Under the pieces are notes generated by a model. The model saw nothing but the letters and a program-made list of their open reading frames with translations. It had not been told where the DNA came from and searched no databases. This document shows positions 27,136-62,116 of a stretch of DNA of 64,000 bases, piece after piece (the first letter of the stretch is position 1; the number at the start of each line of letters is the position of its first letter). Made by a program: the position numbers and the translations under genes. The DNA is taken from the IMG/VR virus record IMGVR_UViG_2778261503_000006. One strand, written 5' to 3'. The stretch comes from a virus. Taxonomy: Duplodnaviria; Heunggongvirae; Uroviricota; Caudoviricetes.

Positions 27136-27210
27136 GATGGTGTAGCTCAGCGGTAGAGCAGTTGGCTGTTAACCAACTGGTCGGTGGTTCGAATCCACCC
27201 ACCATCGCCA
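27136..27210 (+). tRNA. tRNA-Asn (anticodon GUU)
   Basis: manual cloverleaf: acceptor gatggtg/caccatc, D-arm gctc/gagc, anticodon loop ctGTTaa, T-loop ttcgaat, 3' CCA. Confidence 0.85.
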
Positions 27211-27215
27211 ATTTA

Positions 27216-27302
27216 GGGGAGTTAGTCCGTAGGGGTAGCGGGGTAGACTGTAAATCTACTGTCATTGCGACTCGGGTGGTTCGACTCCATCACTCCCCAC
27301 CA
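27216..27302 (+). tRNA. type II tRNA-like gene, anticodon GUA (Tyr) by manual fold; D-arm non-canonical
   Basis: acceptor ggggagt/actcccc, anticodon stem gtaga/tctac with loop ctGTAaa, long variable arm, T-loop ttcgact, 3' CCA. Confidence 0.55.
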
Positions 27303-27306
27303 AATT

Positions 27307-27382
27307 GCCGGTTTAGCTCAGTTGGTAGAGCAGTCGCTTTGTAAGCGAATGGTCAGCGGTTCGATCCCGTTAACCGGCACCA
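27307..27382 (+). tRNA. tRNA-Thr (anticodon UGU)
   Basis: acceptor gccggtt/aaccggc, D-arm gctc/gagc, anticodon loop ttTGTaa, T-loop ttcgatc, 3' CCA. Confidence 0.8.
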
Positions 27383-27836
27383 ACACAACAGGTAAGAGCA
27401 TTTGTAGAGTTCGACTCTCTACCGTGGGCTTTTTCCCGCGATGCGAGCCATAAATGCTCTTACCGTTGTGATGAAGTGCAGCTCTTTGAAGCAACCAGAA
27501 GATAAGCATCTGGCTTCACAACATAAACCGCAGGAACGACCAATAAACGGTAGTCCGTATGGAGAACACCCCGTTGAGGAAGAGGTCTGGCCGGAACCGT
27601 AACCGGCACTACAACGTTGAGAACACTGGCGTAACGGGGTCATATCCCAATCTACGAATAAATGTTGCGTTGCAGCGTGACAACCAGTGTTCTCAACATT
27701 GTGGTGAATGCGCAGGCTGATGCGCGAAAGACATTGCAGCTATTGCGGAAAAGAGCTGTTCGGCGGGGCAATTAAACGCCCGTGAGAGTCTGAAATAACC
27801 GCAAGCCGGAGATCAGCACCGGTCGCCACAATAACG

Positions 27837-27923
27837 GGAGAGTAGGGAGCATGGTGCTCAAGCGGTCTTGAAAACCGTCCCATTGCGCAAGCGATGATGG
27901 TTCGATTCCATTACTCTCCGCCA
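27837..27923 (+). tRNA. type II tRNA-Ser-like (anticodon UGA); D-arm short
   Basis: acceptor ggagagt/actctcc, anticodon arm gcggt-ctTGAaa-accgt (very like E. coli tRNA-Ser), 17-nt variable arm, T-loop ttcgatt, 3' CCA. Confidence 0.55.
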
Positions 27924-28214
27924 GTGCAACATTAAGGGTATTTGGCTAATTAAGCGAATGCCGGAAGCAGAACCGGATCACCAAATGCGTACAGGCGTCA
28001 TCGCCGCCCAGTCAGCCAAATGCTCTTACCATTGCGGTGAATGCGGCTAAGCGCACGCGGAACAGTTAAAACAGTAAAGGTGGTCTTTTTACTGGCGTAA
28101 CGAGAATCCATAAGTGATCCGGCGTTAATTGTTAACTGGTTAACGTCACCGGGAGGCGCCCGGCACCGCAACCTAACAGCAATGGCGTTTTGTCTTAAAA
28201 GGTGGCTGCAAGTG

Positions 28215-28343
28215 ATGGATTTTTGGGCGTTTGCCGATAAAAACCCGGAGTGGACATTATTGTTTCTGCTGGTGGTTGCATACGGGGTAGAGCAAGCGGC
28301 AAAAGCCTTACGCGGTTCTGGCAAAAAGCGTAAGCGTAATTAA
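28215..28343 (+). CDS. candidate 42-aa small membrane protein (below the track's size cut-off)
   Basis: ATG 28215 preceded by AAGGTGG; hydrophobic core TLLFLLVVAYGV and K/R-rich tail; ends 10 nt before a tRNA. Confidence 0.25.
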   Translation: MDFWAFADKNPEWTLLFLLVVAYGVEQAAKALRGSGKKRKRN

Positions 28344-28352
28344 CAGTAATCT

Positions 28353-28428
28353 GGCCCTTTAGCTCAGTGGTTAGAGCGGGCGACTCATAATCGCACGGTC
28401 ACCGGTTCAAGTCCGGTAGGGGCCACCA
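28353..28428 (+). tRNA. tRNA with anticodon CAU (elongator Met or Ile2/lysidine type)
   Basis: acceptor ggccctt/aggggcc with G1-C72, D-arm gctc/gagc, anticodon loop ctCATaa, T-loop ttcaagt, 3' CCA. Confidence 0.8.
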
Positions 28429-29956: not shown

Positions 29957-30349
29957 ATGGAACAAATCAGCAGCGCAGAAATTGCGGATATCATGATCAG
30001 GGCTGACTGCTATCTGACAGTCACTGAAATTACCACTCTCGCCAAAGAAAAATACCCTCATCTCCATGTTTCACGAGTAAGTGTAACTAACATCATTCGT
30101 CATTTTGTTCGTTCAAGCAGGGCAATCTGTGAGCTTGATGATCGTGTTTACCCACGAAAATACTGGTTGCATGGCCTGAACGGATATCAGTTCAAGGTGC
30201 GTGGGCGAACCCCTGAATATGGCAGTTTACTGGTTAAAAACTGTAGCAGGAAATCAGTCGAACAGGCGCGAAAAGAGCAACGAGAGCTGGTGGACATGGC
30301 GAATAAGCTGTGGAATGCCGCCGTTAAAAAGCGTGGTGTTGCTTTATGA
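29957..30349 (+). CDS. small regulatory protein (Lpa-like late promoter activator by position)
   Basis: 130 aa immediately upstream of terminase genes; synteny only. Confidence 0.4.
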   Translation: MEQISSAEIADIMIRADCYLTVTEITTLAKEKYPHLHVSRVSVTNIIRHFVRSSRAICELDDRVYPRKYWLHGLNGYQFKVRGRTPEYGSLLVKNCSRKSVEQARKEQRELVDMANKLWNAAVKKRGVAL

Positions 30350-31176
30350 GTCTGGTTAATTGGGAGGAGCACCGCGCCCGCTTTATAGCGTTGCGTGAAG
30401 AAAAAGGGATCACTGTAAAGGAATACTGTGAGGAGCATGGCCTTAGCTTCAATACAGCCAGAAAGCATCTCAATATGAAAAAAAATGAGGTGCGGTCGCA
30501 GGTAAAGACAACAAAAAAAAGCACCAAATCACCTGAAAAAAAACGGGCGGGAAGAGCAACAAAAAAGCTGGAAGAGGGTGCAGAAAAAACAAAATTTACA
30601 GAAATTGACAATTCGCAGGGCGCAGGTTCTTTCCGAAGTATGCCGAGAAAGAAAACTTCGGATCATGAAAATAATTCAAATAATAACAATGAGATAAAAG
30701 AATCTGTCAGGAGATCATTGCGCGAAAAAATGGCGAAAATGATCCCCGAAGAAGATAAAAACGCCCCAAAAATTGAGGGATCTTCTGCAATGATCCCTGA
30801 CGGTGCTGTGCAGCGTGCCACATTGCCAACTACGAATGTGGCTCGCGATATGATGAAGAACGGCGCAGAAGAACACCTGCGGTTAGCAATTCAAATGGCG
30901 CAAGAGCGCGCACTTCAGTATCAAAGCATTGTTGATCAGGAGGCCGAACGTCTACAGGCGGAAATAGACGCCTTGGGCGATAAAGAGCCAGAAGGAATGC
31001 ACCCTGGGCAGCGCCTTCTCGGTCTAATCAGTGACGCGGCCTACTACATTTTGGGATGTTCCCCTCCCACCAGCAGCAGCAGATCATTCAGTCAGTGCAG
31101 GAAACGGGGAGTAGGACGACCGTCACGTCCGGACACGGAACGGGGAAGTCGTCCCTTACCGCGATGTTGCTGTTGA
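30346..31176 (+). CDS. terminase small-subunit-like protein (PacA-like); 3' end probably not as in the track
   Basis: N-terminal HTH-like region; last ~40 aa (PPTSSSRSFSQCRKRG...) look like out-of-frame read of the next gene; overlaps 31056..32456 by 121 nt. Confidence 0.45.
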   Translation: MSLVNWEEHRARFIALREEKGITVKEYCEEHGLSFNTARKHLNMKKNEVRSQVKTTKKSTKSPEKKRAGRATKKLEEGAEKTKFTEIDNSQGAGSFRSMPRKKTSDHENNSNNNNEIKESVRRSLREKMAKMIPEEDKNAPKIEGSSAMIPDGAVQRATLPTTNVARDMMKNGAEEHLRLAIQMAQERALQYQSIVDQEAERLQAEIDALGDKEPEGMHPGQRLLGLISDAAYYILGCSPPTSSSRSFSQCRKRGVGRPSRPDTERGSRPLPRCCC

Positions 31177-32456
31177 TTTTTATGATCCTGTTCCCCGATG
31201 CCCGTGTCATCATTGTTGCTAACAAGATAGGCCAGGTAAAAACAGGCGTATTCAAATACGTTAAACAGTATTGGGCGAATGCAGTTAAGCGTCATGGGTG
31301 GTTGCAGACCTATTTTGTCCTCTCTGACACCATGTTTTATGAGCGCTCCCGTAAGGGGATTTGGGAAGTTCTCTGCAAAGGTTATCGACTCGGCAACGAA
31401 GAAGCGCTGGCGGGGGAACACGCGGCACATTTGCTTCTAATTCTGGATGAAGCATCTGGTATATCTGATAAGGCGATCGGCGTAATGACCGGTGCTCTTA
31501 CTGAAGAAGATAACCGGATGTTGATGCTATCCCAGCCAACAAGGCCAAGTGGTTATTTCTACGATTCGCACCATTCTCGAGCAAAAACCCCAGACAACCC
31601 GAAAGGGATCTGGACAGCAATTGTTCTTAACTCGGAAGAATCACCGTTCGTCACACCACAATTCATCAAGGAGAAGCTTCTGGAATATGGTGGGCGCGAT
31701 TCTATTGAGTACATGGTCAAGGTGCTTGGTCAGTTCCCACGAGAAATTAACGGCTATTTGCTTGGTCGTGATGAATGCGATCGCTCTGCTCGCCGCAAGG
31801 TGTTGTTGGAGAAAAACTGGGGATGGGTGGCAACGGCTGACGTTGGTAATGGGCGAGATAAGTCGGTCCTCAACATCTGCAAGGTATCAGGTCACAGGGA
31901 TAAGCGGCGCGTTGTTAACTTTAAGGTAATGGAGATGCCTGGCACTATGGACCCATTGGCCTTTGCTGACTTCATATATAACGAATGTACGCCGGAAAAA
32001 TACCCGAATATAACAATCGCGGTTGATGCTGATGGTTTTGGTTCTGATACGTGTGCGCAGTTGGTGCGTCGTGGTGCGAACCCGGTACGTATTCGGTGGG
32101 GAAAACCCATGTTTGCGAACAAAGACAGGGAGCGATTTGTTAATCAGCGTGCCTACGCAAATATTATGGCGCGAGATGCCATAAAGTCAGGGCGTATGCG
32201 GATAGACAGTGACCCTAAAACGGCAGAGCAAGCGTCAAAAATCCCCTTTTTACTGAATGAAGAAGGGAAAATGGCGATGATGCGCAAAGAGCACATGCGG
32301 CAAAAGCTAAACATCAAATCGCCTGACCGATGGGATACCTACTGCTTCACTATGCTGGTGGACTATGTGCCTGCTAATGAAGATATTGGTGCCGAAATGG
32401 CAACTTTCCGAGATCAGGTTCTGGCGGATATCGAAATGCCGGATCTGGATATATAA
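31056..32456 (+). CDS. terminase large subunit (PacB-like ATPase-nuclease)
   Basis: 466 aa; Walker A GHGTGKSS, Walker B LLLILDEASG, conserved GYFYDSHH block. Confidence 0.7.
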   Translation: MFPSHQQQQIIQSVQETGSRTTVTSGHGTGKSSLTAMLLLIFMILFPDARVIIVANKIGQVKTGVFKYVKQYWANAVKRHGWLQTYFVLSDTMFYERSRKGIWEVLCKGYRLGNEEALAGEHAAHLLLILDEASGISDKAIGVMTGALTEEDNRMLMLSQPTRPSGYFYDSHHSRAKTPDNPKGIWTAIVLNSEESPFVTPQFIKEKLLEYGGRDSIEYMVKVLGQFPREINGYLLGRDECDRSARRKVLLEKNWGWVATADVGNGRDKSVLNICKVSGHRDKRRVVNFKVMEMPGTMDPLAFADFIYNECTPEKYPNITIAVDADGFGSDTCAQLVRRGANPVRIRWGKPMFANKDRERFVNQRAYANIMARDAIKSGRMRIDSDPKTAEQASKIPFLLNEEGKMAMMRKEHMRQKLNIKSPDRWDTYCFTMLVDYVPANEDIGAEMATFRDQVLADIEMPDLDI

Positions 32457-33731: not shown

Positions 33732-33763
33732 TAACTTTAAATAATTGGCATTATTTAAAGTTA
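33732..33763. other. rox-like 32-bp recombination site (14-bp inverted arms, 4-bp spacer)
   Basis: taactttaaataat tggc attatttaaagtta is a perfect 14-4-14 palindrome; its reverse complement matches the rox site of the Dre recombinase as I recall it; ~150 bp upstream of the recombinase gene. Confidence 0.8.
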
Positions 33764-33915
33764 GGCTATAATTATGGGTAGATGATCAGTATTGACATCA
33801 CTGAAAATACGCGCCTCGAATCAAAGGCTTGAATCTTGAAAATTAACTTATAGCTACCCTGTCATTTTTATATTTTTCGCGTAGCGTTATCTGTATATAG
33901 AGGTTAAATAGTTTC

Positions 33916-34944
33916 ATGAGTGAATTAATTATCTCTGGCAGCTCCGGTGGTTTTCTGCGCAACATTGGCAAAGAGTACCAGGAGGCCGCAGAAAACTTTA
34001 TGCGGTTCATGAATGACCAGGGGGCTTATGCGCCGAATACTCTGCGCGACCTCCGGTTGGTGTTTCATTCATGGGCGCGCTGGTGTCACGCTCGCCAGCT
34101 TGCCTGGTTTCCGATCTCACCAGAAATGGCCCGCGAGTATTTTCTTCAGCTGCATGATGCCGATCTGGCTTCGACCACCATTGATAAGCACTACGCCATG
34201 CTGAATATGCTGCTTTCGCATTGTGGCCTTCCGCCACTTTCGGATGATAAAAGTGTTTCTCTGGCTATGCGGCGCATCCGGCGCGAAGCGGCAACTGAAA
34301 AAGGCGAACGAACAGGCCAGGCTATACCGCTTCGGTGGGACGATCTGAAACTGCTCGACGTCCTGTTGTCCAGGTCAGAACGGCTGGTGGACCTGCGCAA
34401 CCGGGCTTTTCTCTTTGTTGCATACAATACGCTGATGCGTATGTCGGAAATCTCGCGTATTCGTGTAGGAGATCTGGATCAAACAGGTGACACTGTCACG
34501 CTACATATTTCACACACGAAGACAATAACGACCGCCGCCGGGCTTGATAAGGTGCTTTCCCGTCGCACTACCGCTGTGCTGAATGACTGGCTGGATGTTT
34601 CCGGGCTTCGCGAACATCCTGACGCAGTGCTGTTCCCGCCGATACACCGTAGCAATAAGGCCAGGATCACGACAACGCCCCTTACTGCACCTGCAATGGA
34701 GAAAATATTCAGCGACGCCTGGGTGTTGCTGAATAAAAGAGATGCTACGCCAAACAAAGGAAGATACCGGACGTGGACCGGGCATAGTGCACGCGTCGGG
34801 GCCGCTATTGATATGGCTGAAAAGCAGGTGTCTATGGTGGAGATCATGCAGGAAGGAACCTGGAAGAAACCGGAAACACTTATGCGGTATCTTCGCCGTG
34901 GCGGCGTGTCTGTGGGGGCTAATAGCCGCCTGATGGATTCGTAA
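33916..34944 (+). CDS. dre: Cre-family tyrosine recombinase (Dre-like)
   Basis: 342 aa; SVSLAMRRIRRE, LRNRAFLFVAYNTLMRMSEISRIRVGDL and WTGHSARVGAAIDMAEKQVSMVEIMQEGTW align block-for-block with P1 Cre. Confidence 0.85.
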   Translation: MSELIISGSSGGFLRNIGKEYQEAAENFMRFMNDQGAYAPNTLRDLRLVFHSWARWCHARQLAWFPISPEMAREYFLQLHDADLASTTIDKHYAMLNMLLSHCGLPPLSDDKSVSLAMRRIRREAATEKGERTGQAIPLRWDDLKLLDVLLSRSERLVDLRNRAFLFVAYNTLMRMSEISRIRVGDLDQTGDTVTLHISHTKTITTAAGLDKVLSRRTTAVLNDWLDVSGLREHPDAVLFPPIHRSNKARITTTPLTAPAMEKIFSDAWVLLNKRDATPNKGRYRTWTGHSARVGAAIDMAEKQVSMVEIMQEGTWKKPETLMRYLRRGGVSVGANSRLMDS

Positions 34945-36340: not shown

Positions 36341-36781
36341 ATGAATAACATGGCAACGAAAGAGCTTTTTAAGTTCCGTCCCAAATACAAAGCTCACAAA
36401 AAAAATGGAACCACGGTCATCATTACGGATGACAACGGCGTGATGATTAATCTTACCGGGAGCGTAACTATTTCTGCTGGTGGCATCACCACCCAGCAAG
36501 AAGAAATCGACCTTGAAGCAGCCGACTTTTCAGACGCGCTGATGTGGCTGAAGGAAGGCAAGAAAGTTGCTCGACGCGGGTGGAACGGCGAAAACCAATT
36601 CTGCTGGCTGGTTCCTGAAGGACAGTACCCGGCACGAATGGAAGCCATTAAGGGATATTTCCCCGGCGACCTCGTTCCGTATGGTGCTTATTTCGCCTTA
36701 AAAAATGCACAAGGTGTAGTTGTTCCGTGGGTGCCTTCAGTTGGCGACCTGCTGGCCTGTGACTGGTTTGTTGTGGAGTGA
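36341..36781 (+). CDS. DUF2829-domain protein (Tad2-like fold candidate)
   Basis: 146 aa; FSDALMWLKEGKKVARRGWNGENQF...ACDWFVVE matches the DUF2829 hallmark as I recall it. Confidence 0.6.
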   Translation: MNNMATKELFKFRPKYKAHKKNGTTVIITDDNGVMINLTGSVTISAGGITTQQEEIDLEAADFSDALMWLKEGKKVARRGWNGENQFCWLVPEGQYPARMEAIKGYFPGDLVPYGAYFALKNAQGVVVPWVPSVGDLLACDWFVVE

Positions 36782-36787
36782 TTTGAC

Positions 36788-37555
36788 ATGGAAAGCACTA
36801 AAACAATTCAATACCGCTTGCGTAATGGCCTGCTGGTGGCTGTTAACGCCGACATGTCACTGCCGTTTGACACGATTGAACGCACTATCATGACGTATCT
36901 CGGCTTTAATGAAGAGCTGAATGAAGAGCATGGCGTAGCTATATGGAGTGATGCAGACAGCGGCGTTCGTCGTTACATCACCGCCAGGGGCAAAGACTAC
37001 TCTCTGGAAGAACTGTTTGCCCTTGCGCAGTCTTTCGAATGTGTAGCATTAGACCTGTTTAATGATCCTGCTATAGCGCAACGACTTATACGCGAGCTTG
37101 GGCTATCCGTTACACCAATTATATTTAAAAATGGCAGCCTGACTGGCACATGGCGCGTAGAACGCATCTCAAACTACCTTCCATATAACCGACAGTTAAA
37201 TGGAGTAATCTCCGGCGTTAACCAGCCCGTAGCGTGTGAAAATGTAAACCTAGTTGTCGCTGTTTTGGCAACCGCATGTCGTGTTATCGGTTTGGCTAAA
37301 CAGGCATTTATTCATTTCCCAAATGGTGCAGAAGGTAGCGCAGAGATTATCGCGTGTGATTTCGAATTTACCTGGATGCTACGCGAATATCTGGACCAAA
37401 CAGTATTCCGTGCCGAAGAACTGGATATGTATATCACGTCAACGATTCCAGACGATGTGCGAGCTGAAGCAATCGCTACAGCCAGGGCGAAATGCCGTGC
37501 GGCGATTGCAGAACAGGCCAAAGAAGAAGTTAAGGAAGTGGCAGATGGCGACTAA
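36788..37555 (+). CDS. hypothetical protein
   Basis: 255-aa ORF. Confidence 0.45.
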   Translation: MESTKTIQYRLRNGLLVAVNADMSLPFDTIERTIMTYLGFNEELNEEHGVAIWSDADSGVRRYITARGKDYSLEELFALAQSFECVALDLFNDPAIAQRLIRELGLSVTPIIFKNGSLTGTWRVERISNYLPYNRQLNGVISGVNQPVACENVNLVVAVLATACRVIGLAKQAFIHFPNGAEGSAEIIACDFEFTWMLREYLDQTVFRAEELDMYITSTIPDDVRAEAIATARAKCRAAIAEQAKEEVKEVADGD

Positions 37556-38639
37556 GAGCAATATTTATAAAGATCCGCGCTGGCTGTCGCTGGTGGAGAA
37601 ATATAAAGACAATTGGGTACTGGCAGCAAAAGAATTGTTTGATATTGATTTAAGCCACCAGCAACAACAAATTGTTGAAGCTATACAGCCCAATAATGCA
37701 AAAGCTACTGTCACCACTCCGTATGGGATCGGACGACCGCAAGTGCTTGCTGTTATTAGTACCCTTTATACGATTATGTATCCTGATTCCCGGACAGTAA
37801 TTGTTTATCCAAAATCAAATGTTTGCAAAAGAGGAATTGTTGCATATGTGTGGCAATGTTGGGAGGCATTGCTGAAAAAACAACCTTTTATCATTGAGTA
37901 TTTTAAGGTCGGTGATAGCGGTCTGATGTTCAATGAATTTTGGGGAATGTGCTTTTGTAACTTCCGCCTTAACTATGAAGATAGCATTGCAGGTCACTAC
38001 GCCGACCATCTTTTATTCATTATTGTGGATTCCGCACATATCAGCGATCGGGCATACAGCATTGTGTGGGCAAGCATGACTAGTGGTGATTCACGCATAT
38101 TGCTCACTTCAATTCCGTCACCAGAGGAAATAGGCTTTTTTTATGATTCACATCATGGACGTGCTTTAGCTGAAGATAATCCGAGTGGTGTATATAAAGC
38201 CATTAAGCTGAGTGCGGAGGATTCACCATTTATTACCCAAGAATATCTTGATCATTTTGCCGAAAGGTATGGCGGGCGAAATAGTGATGACTATCGTCGT
38301 ATGATTCTTGGTGAGTTCCCTGGTATTAGGGAGGCTGTTCTTGAATCAGATATGCCGAAGACAATGCGCTTTTCGATGCCTGATGGTAGTGAATGGACAA
38401 TACCATTACGAGTGATAGCCCGGCATCATGCGCAGCACCACGCCAAAAAACATGGCGTCACGACATTAGAATGGTTGAAATCGCACACCATTCCACTCTT
38501 CACTGCAGATCACAATGCTATCGTTGAGTGGGCAAAAACAATTCCGTGGGAGAATGTCGCTGAATACGCCCACATGCTAAAACCGCCGAAAGACAGGCAA
38601 GAAATTAGCTGGCTGACAGCAGAAAAAATCATTGAGTGA
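37545..38639 (+). CDS. terminase large-subunit ATPase-domain paralogue with degenerate catalytic motifs
   Basis: 365 aa from ATG 37545; aligns with 31056..32456 (SHQQQQI, HLLFIIVDSAH vs HLLLILDEASG, GFFYDSHHGRA vs GYFYDSHHSRA) but Walker A is TTPYGIGRP and no nuclease domain follows. Confidence 0.6.
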   Translation: MATKSNIYKDPRWLSLVEKYKDNWVLAAKELFDIDLSHQQQQIVEAIQPNNAKATVTTPYGIGRPQVLAVISTLYTIMYPDSRTVIVYPKSNVCKRGIVAYVWQCWEALLKKQPFIIEYFKVGDSGLMFNEFWGMCFCNFRLNYEDSIAGHYADHLLFIIVDSAHISDRAYSIVWASMTSGDSRILLTSIPSPEEIGFFYDSHHGRALAEDNPSGVYKAIKLSAEDSPFITQEYLDHFAERYGGRNSDDYRRMILGEFPGIREAVLESDMPKTMRFSMPDGSEWTIPLRVIARHHAQHHAKKHGVTTLEWLKSHTIPLFTADHNAIVEWAKTIPWENVAEYAHMLKPPKDRQEISWLTAEKIIE

Positions 38640-38645
38640 TAGTAA

Positions 38646-38675
38646 GAAGCCCGCCTGGTTGAGCGGGCTTCTTTT
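38646..38675. terminator. bidirectional terminator between convergent genes
   Basis: gaagcccgc...gcgggcttc hairpin followed by tttt. Confidence 0.7.
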
Positions 38676-39055
38676 CAAATATTGGAACCATATAGTTCAC
38701 GTAGTTTTTTCGCTACTGAAGATACGGGGATTTCACCAGTTGCAGCCCCCACTGCAAGCTCCACCAGCACGGGATCATCATATACCTGTATACCGTTACG
38801 GCGTAGAAATAGCAGCGCACTGTTTAGCGCGGTACGCTTATTGGCATCATTGAATATATGCCCTCTCGCCGTAGCCACCAGGTAGGTGGCGGAGACTTCG
38901 AAAAGGTCGGTGATCTCTTCGTAGGCAACTCTGGCCTGAACTCTCCCGATAATGGCCTCTGCCCTACCCGGATCTGACATTCCCGGCAGGCCGCCGTAGC
39001 GGCTTATATTCGCATCATGAAGCGCAATAAGTTCTTCCGGTGATATATGCCTCAT
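38675..39055 (-). CDS. doc: Doc toxin (Fic-fold kinase, death on curing)
   Basis: 126 aa; [22 protein letters not shown]... and Fic motif HIFNDANKR; matches P1 Doc as I recall it. Confidence 0.9.
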
Positions 39056-53799: not shown

Positions 53800-54087
53800 A
53801 TGAAGAAAATAGATTTCACTTACTCTGCTGCCACAATCCAGCGACGTTTCAGTCTCATAAGGGAAGTGGAACTATCAAAAAACTGCTATCAAATTCTACT
53901 GGATGAAGAGTTTTCACTGATGGTTATAGCAGAAAAATTGGCTATGCCGAATGACCGACACAAGGTCATAGCCAGCCTCGATCTGGTGACAAACAGATAC
54001 TGGGAGACAGAGGAACTACATGAAGCGGGAGTAATTCGTGGCCTGATGGAGAATTCCGTTCCCCGTCGTTATAGTGTGATGAGCTAA
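53800..54087 (+). CDS. hypothetical protein
   Basis: 95-aa ORF. Confidence 0.4.
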   Translation: MKKIDFTYSAATIQRRFSLIREVELSKNCYQILLDEEFSLMVIAEKLAMPNDRHKVIASLDLVTNRYWETEELHEAGVIRGLMENSVPRRYSVMS

Positions 54088-54413
54088 AACTCACCTGCAC
54101 ACCGTCAGGCCCAACGCAAATAAATGAAACATCCCGCTCTTGGTGTTTCAGTGAAATAGCTCATTTTTAGCTTGGAAGCAACTTGATTATGAGCTAAGCC
54201 TGACATACACTTCAGCGAGAAAATGATCAAGTTAAAGACACAAAAGCTCTGTTTTAACAGAGCTTTTGTGTCTTTAAAACATAGATATCATGCCATATAT
54301 AGTGCCAAAATTAGTTTTAGACACTATATATATTATAAAAGGTAAAAACCGCTTCTACTTTTAACATCCACAGAAAAAAGAAAGCGGTTATAGATAAGGG
54401 AAAAGGAGGGGTT

Positions 54414-54719
54414 ATGCTCTATGCGGTTCCTCAGCAAGCTTCTGATTCTTTGAAGTTAATCAAGACTGTACTTCAGCTTATAGCATCTCAACAAGAAGTG
54501 TCACAGCAGTTAAAGTTACGGGTTTATGAGGTGATCAGAGAAGCCTCAAACTTAAGTGTAGATAAAGGTGATCAATTACAGATTCCTTCTCACAGAGAGT
54601 CCATCTCGCTCGCGGTAGAGATACGCCACACTAAGGCGCTCGCCCAGGTGCTAACCAAAGTAACTAGCGAAGATATGTTAGAACCCGTAATGGCCCGGAA
54701 TGTATTAGAGTACATTTAA
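54414..54719 (+). CDS. small helical protein, first gene of AT-rich three-gene operon
   Basis: 101 aa; ATG 54414 with AAAAGGAGGGG RBS. Confidence 0.5.
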   Translation: MLYAVPQQASDSLKLIKTVLQLIASQQEVSQQLKLRVYEVIREASNLSVDKGDQLQIPSHRESISLAVEIRHTKALAQVLTKVTSEDMLEPVMARNVLEYI

Positions 54720-55792
54720 TGCTTGCATTTACACAACTTACATTAGTTCGAAATAAGCTAAGGGAGATATCAGAATCTCCCTATTTTTCTAAAGACATGC
54801 ATGAATATCTTGCTGTTCTACAAGAAGCGGTAGATAAGCTCTATGAAAACCATGTGAATGTTGCTGATAAAATAATTGCGGATTGTACTTTTTTTATCAC
54901 CGATGCAGTTAATTTTTTCACTGGCAGTACTACAAAGAAAATTCCCTACGAGATTGTTTATTGCTTAAATGATGCCTGTAAAAAATGGATAAGTGAAAAA
55001 ACACTTATAACCACAGCCCTATCTCCAGATATGCATGGGTTTTATTTTAAGTCTGTAAACAAGAATTTGTATTCTTTATTTGATGAAGTTTTAAATGTCA
55101 AATTCGAGGTCGAATTAATTCAGATTTCATTACCTGAAATGTACAGAAGACGACCATTATGCTCTATACCTTTATATCACGAATTGGGACATTTCGTTGA
55201 TATTAGCAAAGGTATTTCTGAGCTTGCCTGTCTTAACTATCGTTCCAAGGACAAAGGCACACTTCCAGGACCAGAATGGAGTAATCTACCTGATGTTATT
55301 TGGATAAATCATTGCAGAGAATATTTTGCAGATCTATTTAGTGCCCAATTTATTGGAAAAAGTGGGGTAGATTTCTTATACAAATTAGCTGGCTCTCATC
55401 CTGCAAGCTATACTCACCCATCCACAGAAGATAGAGTTAAAATTGTAAGCGACTTTTTGAACAAAGTGGAAAATCCAGTTGTTGGCATGTTCAATGCTGT
55501 GATATCAGCCTTACATAAGGGTGGGCAGATTATTTCTCCTTGTTTGACATTGCCGACACCTTTGCTTGATGTGAAATCAGCTTTTGATAATGTGCGTCCT
55601 TTTGTTATTCGCGACCACAATGAAATGCATGCTTTTATTAACAGCAGCTGGCAGTACTTATGCTCTGAATGGGAAAAACCTACGGGTATATGGTCTGGGT
55701 TGTCAAAAGAAGCCATAGAAAAAACTATAAATGATTTGGTTGAAAAATCGATTCGAAACGTAATGATTCTTGAAAAATGGAGTGCACAATGA
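54719..55792 (+). CDS. HExxH zinc-metallopeptidase-like protein
   Basis: 357 aa; HELGH at nt 55178-55192; AT-rich; translationally coupled to both neighbours. Confidence 0.6.
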   Translation: MLAFTQLTLVRNKLREISESPYFSKDMHEYLAVLQEAVDKLYENHVNVADKIIADCTFFITDAVNFFTGSTTKKIPYEIVYCLNDACKKWISEKTLITTALSPDMHGFYFKSVNKNLYSLFDEVLNVKFEVELIQISLPEMYRRRPLCSIPLYHELGHFVDISKGISELACLNYRSKDKGTLPGPEWSNLPDVIWINHCREYFADLFSAQFIGKSGVDFLYKLAGSHPASYTHPSTEDRVKIVSDFLNKVENPVVGMFNAVISALHKGGQIISPCLTLPTPLLDVKSAFDNVRPFVIRDHNEMHAFINSSWQYLCSEWEKPTGIWSGLSKEAIEKTINDLVEKSIRNVMILEKWSAQ

Positions 55793-56406
55793 ATCTCCTA
55801 AGCAAAGCTGAATTGCTGCAATATTATGAATCAGAAGAACCTGAGTCGTTGTTCATTGAACCTCTTCTAAATAAAAACCAAATTGGAAACTTCACCATAG
55901 ACCTTAGACTTGGTTACGATTTTTTAGTGTCTATTATGACAAGGAAGCCGTCAATAGAGTTAATTCCCTCAAAAAACAATGATACTCATCAACCAATCAG
56001 AACATTTTTCCAGGAAACAAGGAGAGATCTTGGGGATAGGTTCATTGTTTACCCGAATCAAGTGGTACTGGCAACAACATTAGAATATGTTTGTTTGCCA
56101 CCAGATTGCTACGCTGATGTATTGTCCAGAAGCAGCTATACAAGGCTTGGTCTTTCATTAAATACCATGATACAACCAGGGTACAGAGGCTGTATATCTT
56201 TAGAGTTATTTAATCATGGGAATAGCCCTGTAGAACTTATTGTTGGATCTCGCATATGTCAAATTCGTATATTCAAGAATGAAACTGTCGGTGAATACAT
56301 AAGTCATGAGTCTCACAGGAAATATTTCGGAAATGTGAGGCCAACCGTCTCAGCAGCAGAAAGTGATAATGAATTAAATATGCTGGAAAAGATCCGACAA
56401 AAATGA
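55777..56406 (+). CDS. dCTP deaminase / dUTPase-fold enzyme (Dcd-like); alternative start ATG 55789
   Basis: IDLRLG, SSYTRLGL, PGYRGCISLELFN, GSRICQIRIF blocks align with E. coli Dcd. Confidence 0.7.
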   Translation: MECTMNLLSKAELLQYYESEEPESLFIEPLLNKNQIGNFTIDLRLGYDFLVSIMTRKPSIELIPSKNNDTHQPIRTFFQETRRDLGDRFIVYPNQVVLATTLEYVCLPPDCYADVLSRSSYTRLGLSLNTMIQPGYRGCISLELFNHGNSPVELIVGSRICQIRIFKNETVGEYISHESHRKYFGNVRPTVSAAESDNELNMLEKIRQK

Positions 56407-59111: not shown

Positions 59112-60297
59112 TTTCCTGAAAAACCAGGACGGGCGCTATATCACTGACGGCCTGTCCTCTAAGGACTTCACGCGTTTATTCGACCTTATCAGGAAAGAAC
59201 AAACCCGTAAGCGCCGACAAGCTCACCGGACGCTGACGCCAGGTAGACTGAGGAACAAATCCGCCGAAGATATTCTCAAGTTAGGGAAGAAAAAAGGCGG
59301 CACGTTCTTCACGCGAGACGACCTGAAAGGTTTCGAAAAGCTACGGAGTAAAACACGCGAAAAATATGACAGCAAGACGGCTGGCATCACATACGCCCAG
59401 CTGGTGGCATCCAGCCAGGCAATCGATATTAAGCGTGCAAATAACGCCGTGGATGACGGATCTGGTATCAAAAGAGCTACACCCGTATCTCTTCGCCACA
59501 ACGTGATTAATATCCGCGTAGAAGCATCGGATATATCCGTCCACCAGCACCATATCGTCCGGATACGCTTTGAAGAATGGGATCAGATGGTTGATGACAT
59601 CGCAGAAGACGATAAATCAGCTCTGAAAATCACTAAATCACTGTGCGCCGGGCGAGTGTCTTTCGATTGTGACTGTGGTCGTCATCAATACTGGTATCGT
59701 TACATCGCTACTGCGGGTAACTTTGCCCTGGCCCCGCCAAAAGAATACGCCTATCCAAAAGTTCGTAACCCTAAGCTACAAGGCGTCGCCTGTAAACACG
59801 TGATCCACTCAATGACGCGGTTACAGTCCGCAAGTTGGCAAATGAGTATTGCTCGTGCACTACAAAAGGCTGCAACGCAAATTGCATTTGGTGACGATCG
59901 CCGACGTACAACCAAACACTTCTCAAAAGAAGACGAGAAGGAGTTTAATCGCAATCGTAGCAGTAAAACGAACGTTGAAGCCGCCAAACGCGAATGGAGA
60001 CTCTATCAGAAGCGCCAGGCAGCTTTAAGTACAAAACTGGCAAAGGACAACGGCAAGATCGACAAACTACGTGACCAATTGACCAAGGCCAGAAAGTTGT
60101 CAGATGCACAGAAAAAACGGGCGGCAGCAAAAGAAGCGGCCTTGCAACGTGAGAAACAGAAAAACAAGGAGCTTCAGCAACGCCTTGCCGATCAGTTCGC
60201 ACTGAAGAAGCAGGCGTTCATTGATGCGCTTGTCATGGCTGGAACACCACCAGCACAAGCTGAAAAAATGTTCATGGAGTATGTAAAAAAAGCATAA
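59104..60297 (+). CDS. SWIM-type zinc-finger protein with K/R-rich coiled-coil tail
   Basis: 397 aa; FDCDCGRHQYW...(x30)...CKHVIH fits CxCxnCxH. Confidence 0.5.
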   Translation: MPDFLKNQDGRYITDGLSSKDFTRLFDLIRKEQTRKRRQAHRTLTPGRLRNKSAEDILKLGKKKGGTFFTRDDLKGFEKLRSKTREKYDSKTAGITYAQLVASSQAIDIKRANNAVDDGSGIKRATPVSLRHNVINIRVEASDISVHQHHIVRIRFEEWDQMVDDIAEDDKSALKITKSLCAGRVSFDCDCGRHQYWYRYIATAGNFALAPPKEYAYPKVRNPKLQGVACKHVIHSMTRLQSASWQMSIARALQKAATQIAFGDDRRRTTKHFSKEDEKEFNRNRSSKTNVEAAKREWRLYQKRQAALSTKLAKDNGKIDKLRDQLTKARKLSDAQKKRAAAKEAALQREKQKNKELQQRLADQFALKKQAFIDALVMAGTPPAQAEKMFMEYVKKA

Positions 60298-60330
60298 ACC
60301 ACACATAGCCTAGCTGCCTAGGCTAGGCTT

Positions 60331-61059
60331 TCATCTTTTTGAAAAATCAATTTCCGTTTTATCAAATAAATTTGAAATATCAGCAACCAATTTATTAAAA
60401 TCATGATCGCCATTATAAAGCGAAGTCTTCTTTATTGCCATTACAAAATCATATAACTTTTCTGGGGAGTCAATACCAACCCCTCTACTTTTAAAAAGCT
60501 CAATGATAACTCCAACATCATCATATAATAATTTTATTGCCGCCATAATCTCTTTTTGCTGCCTAAGCAATCTCTCAAGTTCATTTTTATTTTCATCCAT
60601 AATTCTTTTGTTGAATTGTGTATCATTAATACTTTTTATTATTTCAGTCTCTTTTATTTGCAACGCCTTTCTTTTATTTTGATCCATGTCGGCATCCAAA
60701 TACCTTATCTCTGTATATATTTTACTTGTTAGCTTTGATACGCAAAGAGTGACAATCGGAGCTGCAATTGATGCAATAATTCCAAAAATAAATGGCAAGC
60801 AAAAATGATAAAACCAAGGAGACAAAACGCCTTCATAAACTAGAGGAATCTTACCTCCAACAAATGTTACAGATAAAGTATATAGGATATCATCCTTTGA
60901 CTTCATCAATATTAGTATATCTTTCCAATTAATAATTAGAAAAGAAATGAATATATATGCAAACACTTTATTAAAAAGCTTGTCTTTTATGGCATCTCCA
61001 AAAGATACTTTGATTAGATCATTTTCAGTCAATTTTTCTGTTGATGAATCTGTATTCAT
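60331..61059 (-). CDS. AT-rich membrane protein, candidate abortive-infection/exclusion protein
   Basis: 242 aa; two hydrophobic helices (VFAYIFISFLIINW; FCLPFIFGIIASIAAPIVTLCV) then coiled-coil tail; very low GC. Confidence 0.5.
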   Translation of the reverse strand: MNTDSSTEKLTENDLIKVSFGDAIKDKLFNKVFAYIFISFLIINWKDILILMKSKDDILYTLSVTFVGGKIPLVYEGVLSPWFYHFCLPFIFGIIASIAAPIVTLCVSKLTSKIYTEIRYLDADMDQNKRKALQIKETEIIKSINDTQFNKRIMDENKNELERLLRQQKEIMAAIKLLYDDVGVIIELFKSRGVGIDSPEKLYDFVMAIKKTSLYNGDHDFNKLVADISNLFDKTEIDFSKR

Positions 61060-61198
61060 ATAAACTACCGTGATTTCTAATATCTATTTTATGAAAATTC
61101 ATTTCCGGTTCGTTATCGAACATCGGTTCGACCGCACGCAGTGCGGCCTCATAATCTTGTTCTGTACGGATAGATTTAATGTTCATTAATTACAAAGG

Positions 61199-61225
61199 AA
61201 AGCCCACTTGCTAAGTGGGCTTTTT
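61199..61225. terminator. hairpin plus T-run between minus-strand genes
   Basis: aaagcccacttgctaagtgggcttt followed by tttt. Confidence 0.6.
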
Positions 61226-61242
61226 GTATGTGTTTTACTATA

Positions 61243-61581
61243 TCAGGCTGCTTTTTTATTCAGGTTCCGCTGAGAAATAAATTTTTCAGCAGTATTGATA
61301 CGACTTAACTCTTCCTGAACGCGCATATCATTTTCGACTTCCCACAGGTCTACTGCGGTCTGAAGATTAATCCAAAAATCTACAGAAGTATCGAATGCTT
61401 TTGCCAGGCGATATGCCATATCCATCGTTAGCTTACGATTATTATTAACAAGAGCACTTACGGTGTTACGATGAACATGAAGTATTTCTGCTAACTCGTT
61501 GATCTTCAGCTCTAACGGCTCCAGGTATTCGTACAGCAGGATATCACCTACGGTCGTCGGTTTTCTGGTTGCCTGTTTCAT
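61243..61581 (-). CDS. higA: HigA-family antitoxin (HTH)
   Basis: 112 aa; ILLYEYLEPLELKINELAEILHVHRNTVSALVNN HTH. Confidence 0.8.
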   Translation of the reverse strand: MKQATRKPTTVGDILLYEYLEPLELKINELAEILHVHRNTVSALVNNNRKLTMDMAYRLAKAFDTSVDFWINLQTAVDLWEVENDMRVQEELSRINTAEKFISQRNLNKKAA

Positions 61582-61651
61582 TTTTTGCCCTTACTAGCGT
61601 GCGTATTAAGTGGACTCTGGTCAGAACCCGGTCCGTAACCGGGTATCTGTT

Positions 61652-61954
61652 TTAGTATTTGTGAGGGTCGAGATACAAGTCCTCGGCCTTTCCGTTAACC
61701 CACCTAAAAATTAACCTATATTGCTTATTCACCCTTACTGATGAATAGCCATTTAGCTTCCCTGACAGTTCCTCATACCGATTACCTGGTGGTGATCTTA
61801 AATCCTTACAGGTAGTTGCGGCATTGATAATGTCCAACTTCCGTGACAATGTCATATGAATATCAGGAGGTATCTTTCTATGTGGTGTTGAAAATTCAAA
61901 AAAATCATCAAGCCACGCATCCCTGAAATCCTTTATGTTAATTTTTTTGGTCAT
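61652..61954 (-). CDS. higB: HigB-family toxin (RelE/ParE superfamily)
   Basis: 100 aa; GNRYEELSGKLNGYSSVRVNKQYRLIFRWVNGKAEDLYLDPHKY matches HigB C-terminal pattern; toxin-first order. Confidence 0.8.
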   Translation of the reverse strand: MTKKINIKDFRDAWLDDFFEFSTPHRKIPPDIHMTLSRKLDIINAATTCKDLRSPPGNRYEELSGKLNGYSSVRVNKQYRLIFRWVNGKAEDLYLDPHKY

Positions 61955-62116
61955 TAGTCATTTGATCCTCCGTGATGATTACCGAATGCCATAACTATAG
62001 CGCACCGTTGCACTGTGCGCAAGTGCATTTTATGAATTCCCCCTCCTTCATCCAAAATCACAATCTCCAGAAAATCTTCCTTTCGATACCTGACAGATCG
62101 ACCTTTGAGGATGCTT

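Follow-up and report, generated by a model that had tools for sequence, protein, structure and literature searches.

A terminase-derived pseudo-ATPase fusion as an optional gene of P1-family phage-plasmids

We analyzed a 64,000-nucleotide stretch of Caudoviricetes DNA (IMG/VR record IMGVR_UViG_2778261503_000006; hereafter the window), which comes from a D6-type phage-plasmid of Escherichia coli within the P1 family. Directly after its isaA homologue the window carries an optional gene for a terminase-derived pseudo-ATPase fusion, here called the pseudo-terminase or paralogue, and the DNA flanking this gene is 97% identical to phage D6. The gene is an old duplicate of the ATPase domain of the large terminase PacB that kept the fold and lost the Walker A lysine and serine, the Walker B aspartate and the nuclease domain, and it is fused at the ATPase–nuclease linker to an unrelated domain of about 95 amino acids (aa) that elsewhere is a free acidic protein of phage early regions. 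Several alleles of the pseudo-ATPase part are known, far apart in sequence, and this part is exchanged between elements as a cassette. We tentatively favor, at slightly less than an even chance, a role as an accessory non-catalytic terminase mimic used in host–phage or phage–phage conflict.

The similarity to PacB, noticed in an earlier sequence-only reading of this DNA, is far beyond chance. Residues 37-259 of the paralogue aligned with the PacB-like open reading frame (ORF) at 31056-32456 of the window with 86/228 identities (38%), 63% positives and an expect value (E) of 4e-50 (BLASTP). Translated searches (tblastn) against intact PacBs of D6, P1, P7, RCS47, SJ46 and JK004 gave 33-37% identity from residues 7-10 to residues 259-266 (E 1e-44 to 3e-50), and the best PHROG was phrog_5902 (E 8.6e-165, residues 4-363), a profile that evidently already holds members of the paralogue family. 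Also common to the paralogue and PacB are the first ~36 residues at the N-terminus and the invariant patch G197-F-Y-D-x-H-H...N212-P-x-G...E225-x-x-P228.

Within this shared domain both ATPase motifs are degenerate. The replacement of Walker A by TTPYGIGRP, already noticed in the sequence-only reading, was seen in the alignments against the PacB motif TSGHGTGKS. The same reading had paired VDSAH with LDEASG and reported the Walker B glutamate as lost; the degeneracy holds, but the register was off by one, since both BLAST and MAFFT align IIVDSAH with ILDEASG, placing Val161 at the Mg-binding aspartate and Asp162 at the catalytic glutamate. Among paralogues the Walker A lysine position is occupied by R/Q/Q/H/E, the Walker B aspartate position by V/T/A/M/I and the glutamate position by D/E/E/D/N, and the P-loop shape TTPxGIG is kept despite this variation in former catalytic residues. 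In a regular-expression scan neither GK[ST] nor hhhhDE turned up at any position of the six paralogues, though both were present in 3/3 genuine PacBs, which excludes intact ATPase motifs at an offset position.

Structure prediction, which had been proposed as a check on the paralogy, returned a large-terminase ATPase fold for the first 260 residues. The AlphaFold 2 (AF2) model had a predicted local distance difference test score (pLDDT) of about 90 across residues 10-260, and the top 28 matches in a Foldseek search of the Protein Data Bank (PDB) were all large-terminase (TerL) structures with the terminase type of ASCE P-loop ATPase fold. The best of these were the ATPase domains of P74-26 (4znl, E 2.5e-8), Sf6 gp2, T4 gp17, D6E and HK97, and the PhiV-1 terminase from the complex with Avs3 was also among the matches. 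Each degenerate motif sits where its functional counterpart is expected: TTPYGIGRP forms the loop that connects strand 53-57 to helix 64-78, and the Walker B stretch lies at the end of strand 155-161. A sequence search of the PDB with profile A1 gave no match, nor did Pfam, NCBIfam or PADLOC give a significant one; DUF5076, at 14 bits, was under its cut-off and was disregarded.

Sequence, motif and fold evidence thus agree on a catalytically degenerate paralogue of the terminase ATPase domain, the central claim of the sequence-only reading. The fold is the one defining feature of a functional large terminase that we found; the other four of five (Walker A, Walker B, nuclease and gene location) fail, and the label "terminase large subunit" is therefore unsuitable. 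The gene lies 6 kb from pacAB, after isaA, and not beside the small-terminase gene. That label is carried by one phage record (MH422554) and one metagenome-derived entry (P0002), and RefSeq plasmid annotation calls the identical protein (WP_000201932) a hypothetical protein. The gene is 100% identical at the DNA level in NZ_CP074704 and other ~90-kb non-mobilisable E. coli plasmids.

The C-terminal third, which the sequence-only reading overlooked, is a distinct and widespread phage domain that defines the architecture of the protein. Homology to PacB stops at G256-E-F-P259, the ATPase–nuclease linker, in both BLAST and MAFFT alignments. The nuclease domain is indeed absent, as had been stated, but the tail is not empty, since a separate, independently occurring domain fills residues ~263-364. 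We rejected a shrunken nuclease domain: MAFFT aligned a few residues, BLAST aligned none, and hhalign of a 119-sequence profile against full-length PacB gave a probability of 0.4%. Searching residues 255-364 against 1.84 billion representatives with phmmer recovered 225 clusters at E <= 1e-3, with E down to 5e-15, nearly all of them free-standing proteins of ~100 aa, and a profile search of a larger database raised this to >400 clusters, none named. The family has no Pfam model and no PDB relative by sequence profile search; the C-domain does match the C-terminal part of phrog_17928 (E 2e-13).

Several motifs characterize this domain, namely MPDGSxWxVP, IAxNRAxxYA, DTLPLF, DWAxNNMNWxDV and DYQEGWVNG, with looser forms IAxxRA, TxPLF, DWAxxxMxW and xGW, and the P, A, T, F and W columns are invariant or near-invariant in our alignments (A4, A5). 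In the full-length AF2 model it had a pLDDT < 50 with a shallow alignment, and it was then modelled alone with 119 sequences. The free-standing proteins are very acidic (median isoelectric point (pI) 4.29, charge about -13), and their genes lie in phage early-region arrays of small unannotated genes (loci L011, L013 and L015-L019). Occasional fusions join the domain to DUF1351-type coiled-coil proteins (phrog_17928), to Phage_gp49_66 or to a Lar restriction-alleviation domain, the last of these by a match under the Pfam cut-off.

The fusion with a terminase domain was also found in reversed order. In P0022 (L010:8001-8741) the small domain comes first and is followed by a PacB-like ATPase with a degenerate P-loop, GSGTGTTT; this ATPase part is about 29-36% identical to paralogues and to PacBs alike. 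A transposase gene of the Tn3 family on the reverse strand (L010 8738-10384) truncates the fusion gene, and searches of plasmids and phages for intact copies returned small-domain or PacB matches only. The two fusion orders argue that the pseudo-ATPase and the C-domain work together.

The company kept by the C-domain also suggests another role, in which the C-domain would be the working part, binding a replisome or recombination protein or DNA, and the pseudo-ATPase an add-on scaffold. Genes for SSB, DnaB-type helicase, primase, YqaJ/RecT and RNase T are frequent neighbours of the free-standing genes, the coiled-coil fusions noted above point the same way, and in P1-type genomes the paralogue lies two genes after ssb. 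We nevertheless think a replication or recombination accessory quite improbable: no conserved immediate neighbour was found in these generic early-gene arrays of small genes, and a role of this kind leaves unexplained both the attachment of a terminase domain in two orders and the exchange of that domain alone, described below.

The paralogue family is narrow, forming a handful of 90%-identity clusters that all belong to P1-family elements of Enterobacteriaceae. Among the 724 plasmids in PLSDB with a PacB-like match, about a fifth (163/724) also carry a full-length paralogue, and 92/5,426 complete E. coli genomes match the gene, always on a plasmid and in 36 cases over >=80% of its length. Allele A is >=95% identical to the window paralogue, allele B (P0004-P0006) 64-66%, and the P1-type allele (P0008; MH422554, vB_EcoM-813R1) 51%. 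An equivalent gene in other P1-family genomes, which the sequence-only reading had suggested looking for, is thus present in the 163 plasmids and absent from D6, P1 and P7. In every context seen, including L001, L002, L007, L008 and L009, the paralogue lies directly 3' of an isaA homologue with stop and start overlapping.

The genomes that lack the gene do so cleanly. In D6, isaA is directly followed by pdcA/doc, and tblastn of the paralogue against P1 and P7 found pacB only. P1 (L003, NC_005856, 5534-7244) has IS1 and isaB exactly at the spot occupied by the paralogue in its P1-type relative (L001, 6004-7120), and on either side, as far as the isaA end and again from hxr onward, the two align at 98%. 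The laboratory phage thus lacks a gene that many natural P1-like plasmids (about 119 PLSDB records) carry. Neither pdcB nor isaB of P1 is an equivalent gene, as tblastn of the P1-type paralogue against the P1 isaA–hxr region found nothing (E > 2). The isaA-IS1-isaB locus has been described as a variable region of P1-like plasmids, "RD-2" in PMC6906374 and "region 2" in PMC9603915, and neither paper mentions a terminase-like gene there.

Comparison of the window with its close relative L007 showed that only the pseudo-ATPase domain had been replaced. The isaA genes are 97-100% identical, nucleotide identity falls to 50-70% (about 62%) from the paralogue start codon to about codon 246, and over the C-domain, doc and phd it is back at 93-99%. 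Synonymous divergence (dS) is accordingly about 1.4 for the N-domain and about 0.1 for the C-domain. In PacB, c1 and dre the two elements have 98.6% identity. Because the flanks and PacB are conserved as codons 1 to ~246 diverge, the pseudo-ATPase domain alone has been swapped as a cassette, independently of the resident terminase.

Selection has nonetheless kept the domain. Ratios of nonsynonymous to synonymous substitution (dN/dS; Nei–Gojobori) for the pseudo-ATPase domain were 0.17-0.29 between alleles with about 50% residue divergence, and 0.44 between the closest two; the low ratios together with full-length copies in 163 PLSDB plasmids indicate a constrained gene and not a decaying pseudogene. 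In a comparison of alleles P0004 and P0006 the two ends hardly differed, and residues ~76-135 gave 0.36-0.41 nonsynonymous (pN) against 0.41-0.45 synonymous (pS) differences per site in small windows, which is suggestive of relaxed or diversifying selection on this part of the domain. A functionless relic of a terminase duplication would account for catalytic residues that are lost and vary between alleles, for a gene that is dispensable, and for a truncated 266-aa variant (P0007). Such decay is highly improbable, given the substitution ratios, intact full-length ORFs across three alleles, a good ribosome-binding site with an overlapping start, a confident fold, a conserved TTPxGIG loop among paralogues and a fusion that recurs in reversed order.

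The genetic context of the paralogue (Table 1) points to expression apart from the packaging genes. On the + strand the order is pacA, pacB, c1 (reverse strand), rox, dre, two small ORFs, dut, a DUF2829/Tad2-like gene, isaA and the pseudo-terminase, followed 3' by convergent doc-phd and then humD. We take the Cre-like recombinase gene (33916-34944) to be dre from its recognised sequence and the rox site annotated in the D6 record. A strong promoter precedes seven close or overlapping genes (dre - orf114 - orf160 - dut - Tad2-like - isaA - paralogue), and the promoter scan found no other + strand match upstream of the array through 38639. The pseudo-terminase start codon overlaps the end and stop of isaA (ATGGCGACTAA), which suggests that the two are translationally coupled, and the hairpin after the gene is likely the end of the operon. 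The rox site, TAACTTTAAATAAT-TGGC-ATTATTTAAAGTTA (33732-33763), overlaps the promoter -35 hexamer before the recombinase gene; recombinase binding at rox could regulate the whole downstream array, including the paralogue.

Table 1. Features of the pseudo-terminase gene and its surroundings in the window (positions are those of the window).
Feature	Position	Strand	Basis or remark
Strong sigma-70-like promoter	33745..33772	+	TTGGCA-16-TATAAT, 11/12 matches (promoter scan); overlaps rox
Tad2-like (DUF2829) gene	36341..36781	+	Pfam PF11195, E 5.9e-23, above curated cut-off
isaA homologue, 255 aa	36788..37555	+	48% identity to P1 IsaA, E 3e-89; phrog_2326
Shine-Dalgarno-like AAGGAAG	37532..37538	+	6 nt 5' of pseudo-terminase ATG, sequence reading
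Pseudo-terminase coding sequence, complete	37545..38639	+	364 aa + stop (ORF list)
Pseudo-ATPase domain, residues 1-260	37545..38324	+	BLASTP to PacB, AF2, Foldseek
Degenerate Walker A/P-loop, TTPYGIGRP, residues 57-65	37713..37739	+	BLAST/MAFFT alignment; PacB has TSGHGTGKS
Degenerate Walker B, HLLFIIVDS, residues 155-163	38007..38033	+	Asp to Val161, catalytic Glu to Asp162; PacB LLILDEASG
C-terminal ~95-aa domain, residues about 263/270-364	38352..38636	+	Phage domain family replacing nuclease domain
GC-rich hairpin + T-run	38644..38678	.	Between paralogue and convergent doc; terminator scan

The P1-type locus has a C1 operator in front of ssb with the same sequence as Ossb of P1. From ssb to the paralogue there is no + strand terminator, and a strong one with a 10-bp stem follows the paralogue (L001 7095-7118). 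The window contains no match to the P1 C1-operator consensus, in keeping with the heteroimmunity of D6. Near the paralogue no late-promoter motif of the P1 type was found, the two distant matches being at chance level. From this layout of promoter, terminator and C1 operator, expression is probably early after derepression, or constitutive with dre, and not with the late pac operon.

These observations bear on the role suggested in the sequence-only reading, regulation of packaging or binding of the same partners, in which the dead ATPase domain would bind PacA, PacB or the portal of its own phage and adjust when, or how processively, pac is cleaved and heads are filled. The N-terminal segment and invariant patch in common with PacB could be partner-binding surfaces, and the domain boundary falls exactly at the ATPase–nuclease linker. 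We consider a modulator of this kind unlikely, however, as D6, P1 and P7 package normally without the gene, its alleles swap independently of a resident PacB that is 98.6% identical, and it is located away from the pac operon with no late-promoter motif nearby and, in P1-type genomes, within a C1-controlled ssb unit.

The neighbours of the paralogue include known or likely accessory functions. The Tad2-like gene lies two genes 5' of it in the same array and is polymorphic in length, encoding 146 aa in the window and D6 and 228-233 aa in close relatives (L007 4500-5201, L009 4515-5201). In P1-type genomes the paralogue lies between ssb-isaA and hxr and so abuts the hxr-ddrB-ddrA-darA-hdf anti-restriction operon. 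The window isaA also matches the isaA-type neighbour in MH422554, and IsaA is present without a paralogue partner in D6, P1, RCS47 and SJ46. Pfam, NCBIfam and PADLOC searches with IsaA gave no match. The window IsaA is acidic (pI 4.7, charge -13). We rejected the idea that isaA encodes a degenerate PacA, which would have made a "pseudo-terminase pair", because BLASTP of IsaA against PacA found nothing (E 14).

Two details of the gene model and its comparator differ from the sequence-only reading. The product has 364 aa by the ORF list and not 365, and a longer TTG-initiated ORF from 37254 is a listing artefact, since every homologue begins at the ATG position. The comparator used there, PacB at 31056-32456, is itself N-terminally cut. 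Relative to NZ_CP074704 the window lacks 762 bp, which joins pacA out of frame to pacB at 31049/31050 (region 30346-32456) with 2-nt microhomology and removes about 220 C-terminal PacA codons and PacB codons 1-34. The junction was found in 0/112 related PLSDB plasmids, and the deletion is private to the window. It leaves the window element probably packaging-defective and the ORF at 31056-32456 a truncated PacB remnant.

Elsewhere in the window, five tRNA genes (Asn-GTT, Tyr-GTA, Thr-TGT, Ser-TGA and Met-CAT) are clustered at 27136-28428, and two blocks of low G+C content (about 0.375 vs about 0.48 elsewhere), at 54001-56000 and 60001-62000, are possibly acquired cargo.

A conflict gene fits the evidence better than a part of the packaging machine because the paralogue is dispensable, lies in a variable region and in an early or accessory operon, has alleles uncoupled from PacB and has anti-defence neighbours. 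As a mimic the protein would neither hydrolyse ATP nor cleave DNA and so would act through binding, occupying a partner that normally recognises the terminase ATPase domain; a further contact or activity would come from the fused C-domain. It would be made early or constitutively with accessory genes (dUTPase and Tad2-like in the window, the C1-repressed ssb unit in P1-type genomes) and not with the late packaging genes. One candidate target is a host terminase-sensing immune receptor of the Avs1-3 or Upx type; the other is the set of packaging partners, small terminase and portal, of a competing P1-family phage. Avs2 and Avs3 recognise the terminase active-site (Walker) residues as well as the bound ATP, and the ATPase domain by itself is enough to trigger Avs2 and Upx (PMC13601566). 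Loss of the ATP site would keep the paralogue unsensed by receptors that read Walker residues and bound ATP.

A more specific version of this idea is an ATP-blind early decoy that engages Avs1-3 or Upx receptors but leaves them untriggered, or titrates them out ahead of the real PacB; its pseudo-ATPase cassette would be swapped between elements to keep pace with receptor variants. We regard this as doubtful. Receptors that need an ATP-bound active site may bind the paralogue poorly, which fits avoidance of detection over competition for the receptor and counts against the conflict role in general.

Several further points weigh against a mimic used in conflict. The N-terminal 36 residues and the FYDSHH...NPxG patch common with PacB are equally compatible with binding to PacA or the portal of the same phage, and the replication/recombination-type early regions that hold free-standing C-domain genes could mean a role in DNA metabolism. 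No defence-system model in PADLOC-DB 2.0 matches the paralogue, IsaA or their neighbours, and the genomic neighbours are suggestive, not diagnostic. Mosaic patterns are common in phages and alone are no proof of diversifying selection, and the overall dN/dS is below 1.

Among known proteins, the paralogue is closest in sequence to PacB of P1, P7 and D6 (phrog_5902; Terminase_6N-type ATPase), with which it shares the fold, the phage family and 33-38% identity over the ATPase domain including the N-terminal extension (E 1e-44 to 4e-50). Unlike PacB, it has no Walker A Lys/Ser, Walker B Asp or RNase-H-like nuclease, carries a foreign C-terminal domain, and is optional and located away from pacA. 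The packaging-redirecting proteins of phage-inducible chromosomal islands (PICIs) and Staphylococcus aureus pathogenicity islands (SaPIs), which include small-terminase mimics and the terminase binders Ppi and Rpp, are non-catalytic and bind terminase components in phage–phage conflict. The likeness here is a possible functional analogy only: these proteins, unlike the paralogue, relate to or target the small subunit and are satellite-encoded, and no sequence relation is expected. Anti-defence sponges of the Tad2 family (PF11195) are represented in the same operon and resemble the paralogue in being optional, early and polymorphic in length or allele. Tad2 sequesters a small-molecule signal, whereas the paralogue has no homology to it and nothing indicates small-molecule sequestration.

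Of the analogues described so far, T4 vs.8 comes nearest; it is an uncharacterised, free-standing protein resembling the terminase ATPase and is reported to keep Walker A and B and to activate EcAvs2 on co-expression (Evans et al. 2026, PMC13601566). Likened by description only, both are phage-encoded extra terminase ATPase domains without a nuclease domain; by the same description vs.8 keeps its motifs and has no extra domain, in contrast to the paralogue, which lacks both Walker motifs and has one. We searched the literature for PacB paralogues, terminase decoys and inactive paralogues of terminases and found no account of the gene, of its degenerate motifs, of the fusion or of the C-domain family. 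Laboratory P1 has IS1 and isaB in place of the gene, which therefore was never studied.

No proteins of tailed phages are more conserved than the large terminases, which are also a main target of pattern-recognition immunity in bacteria. A natural, selectively maintained dead terminase domain is thus a ready tool for asking what the ATPase domain binds besides DNA and ATP, and its C-domain belongs to a family of hundreds of phage early-region members that merits its own family definition. If the decoy idea were true, the paralogue would be the first case of a virus making its decoy out of the same protein that the receptor should detect. Should it block sensors of terminases or poison the packaging motors of rivals, the protein would represent a new mechanism of phage counter-defence or phage–phage competition, and it would also explain one recurrent variable region of P1-like plasmids, which are carriers of resistance genes in clinical E. 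coli.

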